NCBI GenBank assembly: GCA_018645535.1
Contig: JABGWN010000052.1
Span: forward strand, 1-36,091
DNA length: 36,091 bases
Direction of reading: 5' to 3'
From: Methanobacteriota archaeon
Lineage (GTDB): Archaea > Thermoplasmatota > Poseidoniia > Poseidoniales > Poseidoniaceae
Shown here: piece after piece, positions 8,458-13,000 of the stretch
Numbering within the stretch: position 1 is the stretch's first letter
Layout of the letters: each line of letters opens with the position of its first letter
Made by a program: the position numbers and the translations under genes
The notes under the pieces: generated by a model
The model's database searches: none
Told to the model about the DNA's origin: nothing
What the model saw: only the letters and a program-made list of their open reading frames with translations

Positions 8458-10023
8458 TCATTCCTCAGGGATATAGAACAACTCAACGCTACCTGTTCCC
8501 AGGGAAATTGGTTGTCCAACGATAATGTTCTCTGCAACACCGGTAAGACGGTCTGTTTCACCGATGATACCTGCCTTAAGCAAGTGGTTTACAGTAACTT
8601 CGAAAGCAGCACGAGCAAGAATACTGTGCTTGGTTCCTGAAACACCGTGTCGGCCAATTGCACGTACCTCACCTTCAGAGGTCATGACGTCTGCAACCAT
8701 GAGAAGGTGGCGAACGTCGACTTCAAGACGAGCACTGAGCAAAGTTGCTTCAAGTTCGTTGATAATTGCTTGACGAGCAGATTCAATACCAAGATAGTTG
8801 AAGATCTCAATAATGTTGTTCGTATAGGTACGAGAACGGTCAATTGATTCGATTTCACTCACTCGTGATAGATTTGAACCAATGGTTGAGAGATAGTATT
8901 CTCCGGCTTTGTCATCGAATTGAACGTTTGCACGCTCGATGCTTGGGATACCCTTCAAACGCATGTCACGAATCTTTTCTTCAAGTTGTAGAAGCATGGT
9001 GTACGAAGGAGGATTATCCTGCAATTCAGCAAGATCCTCTTCGTTGTGAACGCCAGGAATAATGGTAAGAGTACCTGGATTCTTTTCCTTGTCTACTTGT
9101 ACATAGAGGCGAAGTGCTCGCTCAAGCTTGTCCTTAACTTCCATTCCAGTCATGTTCTTTTGCTTGAGGTTTCCTTTATTCAATTTGAGAACAAGTCGTC
9201 GTTGAGCAACGTCGGTCTCGATTTGAGCGATGTTGGCAGTCGTTGTAATCTCGAGAGAAGCAGCAAGTTTCTGTGCTTCTTCTGGAGAATTCTTGTCAGG
9301 CATCAAACGAATGATCATTGTAGGCGTACTTGGTACCTTACGTGCATCGACAATCTCAATGATACGAGGTAGACCTTGTGTGACGTTGACAGTCGCAACA
9401 CCCGCATAGTGGAACGTACGCATGGTCATCTGTGTTCCAGGCTCACCAATAGATTGAGCAGTGATAATTCCTGCAGCTTCGAATGGATCGATACTGGCTT
9501 TGTCCAGAGCATTGAATGCATCGTTGATAACAGCAGCAGCTTGCTTCTTGGTCAATTTCTTGAGTCCACGCTTGTGGATTGCAAGAGTCATATCATGAAT
9601 GATTTTGCCGCTGAAGCGGTTTGTACCCATGTCATCGACGGCTGCATGAAGAGCCTGGAAGACCTTGTCATCTGCAAGAACATCATCAAAGGAACGTAGT
9701 TTCTTTTCAACGTTGTAGACATCGAGGTCAACTGCTGTCTTTGCACGAGAACGGGTTCGAGTTCCTCTTGCTCGCATCTTACGAACTTGAGTTACTGGAC
9801 CTGTTGCTTCAGAACCGCTTGCACGGTTCTTCTTCATAGCTCCATCAATAGTTCCACGGATTGTGGCTGATGTTTCTGAATCAGTTTCGCAGATTTGAGC
9901 GATTTCTTGAGCAGTGAGAATCTTGACGTCATCCCACTTTCGATCGTTTGCTAGTGTGTGAGCAAAGTTTTCTGCAATGCCCAAATCCATGAGCTTCTTC
10001 TTGGTTGCACTCTTAACGACCAT
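8458..10023 (-). CDS. rpoA2: DNA-directed RNA polymerase subunit A'' with ~100-aa N-terminal extension
   Basis: [38 protein letters not shown] and [32 protein letters not shown] are canonical A'' blocks. The start ATG overlaps the rpoA1 stop (TGATG at 10021-10025). Confidence 0.95.
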
Positions 10024-13000
10024 CAGTCCTCACCTCCATCGTAATCGACCTCGGTTGACTCATCGTCCCATGCACCAAGATCTTCCTCACGTTCTTCACG
10101 CTCTAGACTTTCACGAGTAACAACAGTTACTCCATCGGTACCAAGAGCACCATCGATGATAACATCGATGTTGAAGGCAGATCCGTGGACACCACGGCTT
10201 GGGTCAATTCCGTCTTCTCCATAGGAGAATTGGATGATACGGTTTGCAGTGTTTCGTACAGAGAGCATATCATCATTGAAGACCTTGAGATCATCCATTG
10301 CGTTAATCAATCGGCGTTGCATGTATCCAGACTTGGAAGTACGAACCGCTGTATCGACCAGAGATTCTCTTCCAGAAACTGAGAGCATAAAGAACTCAGT
10401 TGGTTCAAGTCCACGCTTGAAAGAACCGGAAATGAATCCACGGTCTTCTGCACCACGGCCACCACGCTTGAAGTGAGGAAGAACACGGTCATCGTATCCA
10501 CGTTCAAGACGCTTACCACGAACCTTTGCTTGACCGATTGAACCAGCCATCATGTTCAGGTTATCCATTGAACCGCGAGCACCAGATATTGCCATGTTAA
10601 CAGCAGCATTGGTTGAACCGGATTGGTTCAGCTCGTTCTTAGCAACGTCACCAGCTTCTTGCTTTCCTTCATCGAGCATTACCATGATGTTCTCTTCAAG
10701 AGTTTCACGCATTGTTCGGCCAGCACGAGGTTCGTACTTTCGAGGATCGCCCTTAGCGGATTCAAAGTGTGCAAGTTCTTTGTTAACAAGTTCACCAGCT
10801 TCAGCATTTGCCGCATGGATTGCAGCAAGTGCTTCTGAAGACAAATCTTCATCATCAATACCCGTTGTAAATCCAAGCGATGTACAAGCAGCGATAGAGA
10901 GTCGTGTGAATTCATTCAAGAATTGAGCACCCTTTTCGGAACCATTTGTTTGAACGATAGCATCCAACAAACGACCGTCTTCAGCACCAATTGCACGCTT
11001 GTCAAGAGTTCCCGTAACGTTTCCGTTTCGGACGTGAACTTCGTCTCGGCTTCTTGACATGAAGTGCAGGTTGATGTTGTCAGGAATGATCAGAGAAATC
11101 AAGTCGTGTCCTCTGAATGCATCTTTTCCGTTTTCGTCCTTGATGATTTCAGGCAGTTGACCAGTGTAGTCAATACTTCCAAGCATCTCAAGACCATGGG
11201 ATTTTAGAACTGTTGTTCCAGGACGTGATAGGAGATAAGCACCAGAAATGTGGTCGTGAATACCACCGATAACTGCTCCACCGTAACGAGGTGTGAGGAT
11301 GTGCTCTTGCACTCTCATCAGAATCTTAGCTTCAGCACGAGCTTCTTCAGATTGAATAACGTGAAGGTTCATCTCGTCTCCGTCGAAATCTGCGTTGTAA
11401 GGAGTACATACAGCCAAGTTAAATCGGAATGTTTTTCCTTCCATGACACGCACTTCGTGAACCATCATCGACATTCTGTGAAGAGATGGTTGTCGGTTGA
11501 AGATTGCAACGTCTCCATCGATAAGGTGACGCTCTACTTGCATACCGGGCTTTGGATTTCCGCGTATGTCAACAGTTGAAAGTCGGTCTTCGACAGGTGT
11601 TGGCATGTCGTATTCATCGTCAGGGCTGCCACAGTGAGGGCAACGGATTTCAAGATGCGCTGGAAGTGGCTCAGGGTCAAGTTTGTCTGCTTGACCGAGT
11701 TCATGCAACCATCGATAATGGAGAACTGCACGAGGATCGTCTTCAGGCAATGGGTGACCGTGAGCATCTTCACCACGAAGGTTACGAATAGTTGCTTCAT
11801 CATCAACCAAGTAAGTCAAATCATCGAGACCGCTTCCTTCAAGATTCTGAATTTCACGAATAACCAAACCAGGTAGGAAGTTTGGAGCGAAGAGAACTTC
11901 GTTCAGATCATGACGTAGGCCAGGGTATGGTTGGCTCTTGAGAGCGTCGCCAGAGTGGCATTCAGGATTATGGCATCGGAAACCTGCGTTAATCAAACGG
12001 CTTCGAGCATTAATTCGGACACGTCGGCCGTCACCACGAACAATGTAGTTGACACCAGGGTGAACATCAGGTCCACGAAGAATCATCTGTCGCATTTGTT
12101 CTCGGTTACGTAGAGTAACACGGATAGGTACGGTCAATTCCTTTGCAATCTTCTTAGGGACACCAACTTCGTTGATTCCAAGGTACGGGTCAGGAGAGAT
12201 AACTGAACGAGCACAGAAGTTAACACGCTTACCGGATAGGTTAGAACGAAATCGTCCTTCCTTACCCTTGAGTCGTTGCGTCAGAGTCTTCAATGTACGG
12301 CCAGATCGATGACGTGCTGGAGGAATTCCAGATGTTTGGTTATCGAAGTAGGTTGTTACGTGATACTGTAGAAGTTCCCAAAGGTCTTCAACAATCAATT
12401 GAGGTGCACCAGAGTCACGATTCTCTTGCAGACGTTGGTTGATACGTAGAACGTCAACCAGCTTGTGTGTCAAGTCGTCTTCTGAACGATCTCCACTGTC
12501 AAGTGTAATCGATGGTCGAACGGTGATCGGAGGAACCGGTAGAACCTTCAAAACCGTCCATTCAGGTCGGTTTTGCTTATCCATTCCAATGAAAATCAAG
12601 TTTTCTGGAGGGATACTTGCTAGCCACTCACGAACGTCCCGAGGATTCATCTTTCTCTCAGTCTCTTTTCCGCCAGTAGTTGCATTCTCAGTCTTCTCCT
12701 TGAATGTCGTTGGCTTGTCAAGACGGATTTCTCCTTGCAGAGATCCGCAGTGCATACAAGTACGTCGGTTCTTAGCAGATGCAATCTTTTCGACTTCCTT
12801 GATGATGCTTGAGAATTCTGTTGAACCAACACCGTGCTTGGTGATGATATCACGGATACGTGATCGGTAGTAATCCTGTTCAGAAAGTTCTGGGTTGGAA
12901 GGGTGAGTTTCCTTTGCAGAGTGAAGTAGAACGTTACTGCAAGAGTTACATGTCGACTTCAGTGCTGTCTTGATGAGGTTTACGAAACCGATGTGAATAA

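Follow-up and report, generated by a model that had tools for sequence, protein, structure and literature searches.

An acidic, cysteine-bracketed insertion in the putative dock domain of RNA polymerase subunit A' from Poseidoniales archaea

Archaea of the order Poseidoniales are among the most abundant in the surface ocean; they are uncultured, and their transcription machinery is known from sequence only. The rpoA' (rpo1N) gene of one such archaeon raises the question of what a long segment inserted into RNA polymerase subunit A' is, where in the enzyme it lies, and what it might do there. The gene occupies positions 10023–13259 of contig JABGWN010000052.1 (GenBank assembly GCA_018645535.1, family Poseidoniaceae), the 36,091 nucleotides of which were analyzed as a whole and are referred to here as the window; this gene and all other features of the window described below are on the reverse strand. 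It is located within an rpoH-rpoB-rpoA'-rpoA''-rpl30e operon with the usual gene order. The 1078–amino acid product of the open reading frame is the archaeal RNA polymerase subunit A' (RpoA', or Rpo1N), given that it exceeds the cutoffs of the NCBIfam equivalog models NF006336 (1139.6 bits, cutoff of 819) and TIGR02390 (1094.7 bits, cutoff of 1042.55). It contains Rpb1 domains 1 to 5 of Pfam in order, matches Rpo1N of Thermococcus kodakarensis (4qiw_A) with an E value of 2e-272, and has the catalytic motif NADFDGD at residues 622–628.

Extent and distribution of the insertion

A first-pass annotation of the window had proposed that RpoA' harbors an insertion of approximately 135 to 155 amino acids between residues 417 and 572 (window 11544–12011 by translation), bracketed by C429, C434, C540, and C543, and that the protein ends in an acidic tail. 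All of these elements were found where it had placed them. We compared the window sequence and RpoA' from 28 other Poseidoniales genomes, together 29 sequences from three families and 22 genera, with RpoA' from 12 other Thermoplasmatota genomes, five of which belong to the sister family in the same class. The spacer between the GDGRRVRI block (matched by [YF]xxRxxxxx[ILV][KR][ILV]) and VERHLIDGD (matched by [VI]ER[HQ]) was 145 to 161 amino acids in all 29 Poseidoniales sequences and exactly 17 amino acids in all 12 others, including those of the sister family, whose rpoA' products comprise 892 to 905 amino acids. The mean excess was 137 amino acids, which bears out an insertion of the proposed size rather than a normal variable region.

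HMMER alignment to the T. kodakarensis chain led to the same conclusion, with query residues 421 and 572 aligning to chain residues 399 and 409, respectively. The solved archaeal and Pol II and Pol III structures, which made up the length comparison at this site outside Thermoplasmatota, were likewise short in the HMMER alignment, and the matches to Pfam domain 2 and to the NCBIfam models were each broken into two stretches at the insertion site. From the alignment, distribution, charge, and structure models together, we place the Poseidoniales-specific insertion at residues 422–570 (11550–11996), with a net length of approximately 137 amino acids and a charge of -16 in the window sequence. 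Its C-terminal boundary is less sharp. Residues 556–572 (VEDRLSTVD...GNPKPG; 11544–11594), compared by eye with LAERLE..G of the relatives, probably represent a remodeled segment of the original dock, and a 10-residue C-terminal part of the insert region is probably the remodeled original connector. If VEDRLSTVD...GNPKPG is indeed the old connector, then the true insertion point would lie N-terminal to it, just after RINARSR.

The distribution of the segment, for which the first-pass annotation had proposed a survey, was determined by a six-frame genome search with a 156–amino acid segment. The insert was found in 144 of 151 Poseidoniales genomes (57 of 58 of high quality) and in all 22 genera, always within a long open frame, and no complete rpoA' without it was seen among the Poseidoniales genes examined. 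The same search did not reveal the insert in any of approximately 238 other Thermoplasmatota genomes, namely, all eight of the sister family and approximately 230 others of the phylum; outside the order, it yielded only two chance-level matches (E value of approximately 0.009), both in frames with stop codons. Among GTDB species representatives, 422 loci encode the insert, and the titles of the best 80 of these loci refer to Candidatus Poseidoniaceae, Poseidoniales, Poseidonia, or a generic archaeal metagenome-assembled genome, with the exception of one Rhodobiaceae label. A profile of the insert alone yielded 24 matches among 1.84 billion representative proteins. Two of these matches were long RpoA' proteins, and the nine short matches inspected were either pieces of RpoA' with RpoA' flanks or frameshifted. 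No significant match to the insert was obtained in Pfam, NCBIfam, or PHROGs. These profile and genome searches indicate that the insert is an orphan confined to one gene in one order. It is apparently restricted to, and common to all of, the Poseidoniales, and amounts to a clear-cut synapomorphy of Marine Group II. It sets this group apart from every other lineage of Thermoplasmatota, Marine Group III included, and is of use as a taxonomic marker and as a check for mis-binned contigs.

Three sets of records from these searches stand apart. Contig CALDQY010000270.1 (4193 bp), the one assigned to a genome titled "uncultured Rhodobiaceae bacterium," encodes the insert with 72% identity; it almost certainly derives from an archaeon and was mis-binned. 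One genome (G090) gave two matches, on contigs C17 and C54, that resemble halves of a single gene divided over contig ends. Another (G039) contains two different copies, on contigs C256 and C155, that are 52% and 57% identical to the query, and its bin may therefore be a mixed one.

Conservation, predicted fold, and cysteine sites

Alignment of the 29 Poseidoniales sequences revealed 27 invariant positions in the insert, the four cysteines and 23 others, arranged in the blocks GFRC-N--C, APNF-PG, T--NL-G, RW, L---CPHC, and DRL---D. The cysteines noticed in the first-pass annotation are therefore conserved throughout the 22 genera. They form two knuckles: C429-x4-C434 (11958–11975) within GFRCxNxxC, in which G, F, R, both C residues, and N are invariant, and C540-P-H-C543 (11631–11642) within CPHCGSP, in which all four residues of CPHC are invariant and to which Pfam gave weak, subthreshold zinc-ribbon matches. 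Between the knuckles lie the invariant motif APNFLPG (residues 458–464; 11868–11888), the conserved motif TxxNLRGED (residues 490–498; 11766–11792) on and just after a predicted helix that follows a β-hairpin, and the invariant pair R516-W517 in a long predicted helix (11703–11717, corresponding to residues 515–519). The insert varied in length in two loops. Pairwise ratios of nonsynonymous to synonymous substitution rates (dN/dS) were 0.03 to 0.25 for the insert and 0.01 to 0.1 for the flanks and core, values that indicate clear purifying selection on the insert, somewhat relaxed as expected of a peripheral domain. The acidic character that had been noticed in the window sequence proved to be general: each of the 29 inserts had a net charge between -10 and -21, and the charge density was approximately -11 per 100 residues, compared with approximately +0.7 per 100 for the remainder of RpoA' from the window.

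We obtained structure models with AlphaFold2 for two segments of the protein. For residues 412–580, modeled with the 29-sequence alignment, the mean predicted local distance difference test score (pLDDT) was 81.8 and the predicted template modeling score (pTM) was 0.74, with block means of approximately 73 to 95, mostly approximately 90, over residues ~432–561. In the predicted fold, a short strand at the first knuckle is followed by a helix, a β-hairpin, a helix with NLRGED, a long helix with RW, and short strands around the second knuckle. For residues 335–660, modeled with 41 sequences including the relatives that lack the insert, the pTM was 0.75 and block-mean pLDDT values were 76 to 96, mostly 86 to 96, over residues ~374–574; barrel strands that require other subunits were poorly predicted in this model. 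In the larger model, the block-mean pLDDT was 95 for residues ~415–434, which cover the dock-insert junction and the first knuckle. To judge from these confidence values, the insert would not dangle from the dock but be packed rigidly against it. The models thus predict the insert with confidence to be a folded domain, and one whose fold resembles that of no chain in the PDB, bacterial polymerase inserts included; BEAN, HABAS, and other solved polymerase insertion folds were rejected as candidates for lack of structural similarity.

With four invariant cysteines and short β elements predicted at both knuckles, the comparison lends support to the zinc clasp suggested in the first-pass annotation, and the four residues are most likely the ligands of one structural zinc ion. 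The site is not a classical zinc ribbon. It has the two conserved cysteine pairs of such ribbons, but the pairs are 105 residues apart rather than closely spaced, and the best match to a curated Pfam zinc-ribbon profile, Zn_ribbon_3 (E value of 0.017, 15 bits against a cutoff of 27), covered only the second knuckle. The putative clasp resembles the known structural zinc sites of the archaeal machinery (the zinc-binding domains ZBD1 and ZBD2 of RpoA' and ZBD3 of RpoB, and the ribbons of RpoP, TFS, and TFB) in its CxxC-type knuckles, in its CPHCG sequence, which is like CPxCG, and in its short β elements. It differs from them in that its knuckles surround a whole domain and in that Pfam zinc-ribbon matches remain below threshold. 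The predicted Cys4 site would bring the zinc sites of RpoA' to three, and no other lineage has this one.

Location in the dock and possible roles

Whether the segment decorates the clamp or the dock, a question left by the first-pass annotation, was answered by alignment to solved structures in combination with published domain boundaries. Residues 347–413 of Rpo1N from Sulfolobus acidocaldarius constitute β'-aD1 (PMC11515920, Table 2), a domain specific to archaea and eukaryotes that is inserted in the double-psi β-barrel (PMC11515920). Query residue 416 aligns with residue 388 of the Saccharolobus chain, which places the insertion point inside β'-aD1 and hence, on the basis of these alignments, probably in the dock domain. 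The dock region with the insert extends over residues ~375–585 (11505–12137), with boundaries that are approximate and derive from the alignment, Table 2 of PMC11515920, and the AlphaFold2 models. The canonical Rpb1/Rpo1N dock contains a connector that is 17 residues long in the Thermoplasmatota relatives; with 145 to 161 residues in its place, the dock of Poseidoniales is roughly tripled in size.

Outside the cleft, the dock is one of the best conserved regions. The zinc ribbon of TFB or TFIIB binds to it and thereby recruits the polymerase, and nascent RNA is directed along it. The termination factor FttA is positioned where the exit channel opens and touches ZBD1 of RpoA', ZBD3 of RpoB, and the stalk. 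Given that the dock is both the landing site of the TFB ribbon and part of the RNA exit path, an interaction or steering surface is the most likely role for the insert. We therefore favor, with a probability of roughly 0.6, the reading that the zinc-clasped enlargement of the dock is a lineage-specific surface for TFB docking or for the traffic of nascent RNA and termination factors. According to this scheme, a permanent, translated domain of approximately 137 residues would be nested within the dock of Poseidoniales RpoA', with one zinc ion on C429/C434 and C540/C543 stapling the entry and exit strands together at its base. The acidic α/β module would project from the dock, packed rigidly on it, and so enlarge it. 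The module might then reshape docking of the TFB ribbon and promoter escape, or alter the engagement of nascent RNA and exit-channel factors (FttA/aCPSF1, the Spt5 KOW domain, and the stalk), or both, with its negative surface repelling RNA and attracting basic partners. Zinc binding, the identity of the partner, and the direction of the effect on transcription are what we infer here. The insert would in this case be a defined and testable example of a lineage-specific insertion that remodels a factor-binding surface of an archaeal polymerase.

The genome encodes two TFBs with intact zinc ribbons. TFB1 (positions 727–1704 of L045, reverse strand) is 91% to 97% identical across the three families of the order, far above the corresponding value for RpoA', and a second, divergent paralog (~39% identity) was present in every genome checked. 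TFB1 also shows changes in its ribbon and reader that are specific to the order, with RDETRGE in place of RDYERGE and GAEWR in place of GPEWR in the relatives. Coevolution of TFB with the insert has been kept only as a hint; the ribbon changes are inseparable from the general divergence of the branch.

Several points weigh against a steering surface. Substitutions such as those in TFB1 may be equally well explained by the long branch leading to Poseidoniales. The location depends on taking β'-aD1 to be the dock of Cramer and colleagues. The alignments given to AlphaFold2, at 29 and 41 sequences, were shallow. Finally, mean identity to the window sequence was 57% for the insert compared with 76% to 81% for the catalytic parts of RpoA', a level of conservation that is expected of a peripheral decoration and that could mean that the domain is only mildly functional.

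This last point also underlies the best supported of the alternatives, which we nevertheless consider unlikely, namely, that an insertion fixed in the ancestor has been retained as a near-neutral decoration, under selection to fold without disturbing the dock, with zinc as a stabilizer and with no specific partner or regulatory role. An orphan domain without a detected homolog, a dN/dS of up to 0.25 in some pairs, and variable length in two loops all fit such an origin, as does the presence of other accretions in the same polymerase (described below), which suggests a general tendency to gain extra segments. Neutral retention would not, however, readily account for 27 positions that are invariant across three families and 22 genera and that include noncysteine residues of surface type in APNFLPG, NLRGED, RW, and DRLxxxD. 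The strong negative charge is uniformly maintained, no complete gene of the order was seen without the insert, and few surfaces outside the cleft are as conserved or as functionally busy as this site.

A doubtful variant, to which we give less weight than to decoration, is that the enlarged acidic dock is a built-in initiation element, in which a second, lineage-specific contact with the TFB ribbon and N-terminal region would stabilize the preinitiation complex in organisms in which TFE-α is undetected. If this were true, the way in which the polymerase is recruited and released in Poseidoniales would be one unseen in model archaea. Pfam TFIIE_alpha indeed gave no match in 17 Poseidoniales and two sister-family genomes, and TFE may have been lost or become highly divergent in the class. 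Detection of TFIIE_alpha is patchy, with strong matches in ~9 of ~60 other genomes of the phylum. Its absence from the sister family, which lacks the insert, and from many other Thermoplasmatota means that it does not explain the insert, though it remains compatible with a built-in initiation element. The idea that the insert replaces a lost subunit or factor was rejected for the same reason and because the stalk subunit Rpo7 has been kept in Marine Group II as well as in Marine Group III.

Next in our ranking after decoration, though improbable, is the possibility that the domain is an acidic mimic of nucleic acid or an autoinhibitor, gating the polymerase by reversibly covering a surface that is basic or binds DNA or RNA, such as the RNA exit path or the basic stretch of RpoA''. 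Its net negative charge throughout the order, its position close to the RNA exit, and the visible basic stretch in RpoA'' are compatible with this idea, and the acidic "expander" loop of A190 in Pol I would be an analog. The models, however, predict that the domain is compact and has a rigid connection to the dock, unlike a mobile loop able to enter a channel, and the RpoA'' extension starts on the jaw side, far from the dock.

Even less probable is a redox or zinc-sensing switch, in which oxidation of the Cys4 site or loss of zinc in zinc-poor sunlit water would unfold the clasp, alter polymerase recruitment, and link transcription to oxidative stress or metal supply. The invariant cysteines do lie at a hinge-like domain base, and Poseidoniales live in the surface ocean, but polymerase subunits commonly contain structural Cys4 zinc sites, which are inert as a rule, and no sequence feature separates a sensor from a staple. 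That the segment is an intein, an intein remnant, or some other intervening or mobile sequence, removed or nonfunctional, was rejected with hardly any reservation: archaeal polymerase and replication genes can carry inteins and the segment starts near a cysteine, but every feature tested fails, with no Hint, intein, or homing-endonuclease match in Pfam even at E values of up to 1, a C-terminal boundary that lacks His-Asn followed by Cys, Ser, or Thr in the alignment, occurrence in this gene only, with the frame kept and purifying selection acting on it in all genomes, and a predicted fold as one unit with the dock.

Known polymerase inserts and other additions in Poseidoniales

Inserts in bacterial RNA polymerase act as modulators or as platforms for factors. 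Like SI3 of β', SI1 and SI2 of β, the non-conserved domain of Thermus β', and the BEAN and HABAS domains (PMC11515920), the Poseidoniales insert is a predicted folded domain that is confined to a lineage, follows its phylogeny, and interrupts an element on the surface of one of the large catalytic subunits, and in both cases it is nested inside another insertional domain. It differs from the bacterial inserts in being archaeal, in its location in the dock (β'-aD1), in its bracketing by four cysteines, and in its lack of fold similarity to them. The lineage-specific polymerase insertion sites listed in PMC11515920 are all bacterial, and our literature searches turned up no description of this insert or of any other insertion in an archaeal dock. 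Whereas lineage-specific inserts in large polymerase subunits are already known, an archaeal, Cys4-clasped domain with a predicted orphan fold in the dock appears to be new. With a conserved domain of approximately 137 residues and a new predicted fold on its dock, the Poseidoniales enzyme cannot simply be modeled on that of Thermococcus or Saccharolobus.

The insert and the acidic C-terminal tail had been held to account together for most of the extra length of RpoA'. This attribution holds for the insert, which contributes approximately 137 amino acids, and has to be amended for the tail, which is confined to one family, and for two further insertions of 11 amino acids each. The tail (residues 1051–1078; 10026–10109) was found by alignment only in the Poseidoniaceae-like family f1, where it adds approximately 33 residues and gives the C-terminal region a net charge of -7 to -18; proteins of families f2 and f3 end approximately 23 residues past YGEDGxDP, as is usual. 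Such a restriction identifies the tail as a separate, younger addition that is independent of the dock insert. The two 11–amino acid segments are located in the clamp-head region, at residues 114–124 (12897–12929) and 189–199 (12663–12695), and both are missing from at least 10 of the 12 RpoA' proteins of non-Poseidoniales Thermoplasmatota.

The acidic tail adjoins the N-terminus of RpoA'', a protein of 521 amino acids in which the Pfam match to Rpb1 domain 5 begins at residue 145. The preceding N-terminal extension of approximately 140 amino acids (residues 1–144; 9600–10023) bears a 15-residue basic stretch. This extension belongs to the same enzyme and the same lineage as the dock insert, but it is terminal, whereas the dock insert is internal and acidic.

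In one Poseidoniales genus (g8; genome G146, contig C5, positions 92200–97100), the universally conserved catalytic motif NADFDGD of RpoA' is replaced by NADYDGD, although the protein (1080 amino acids) is otherwise intact; this substitution may be a real variant or a consensus error of the metagenome-assembled genome.

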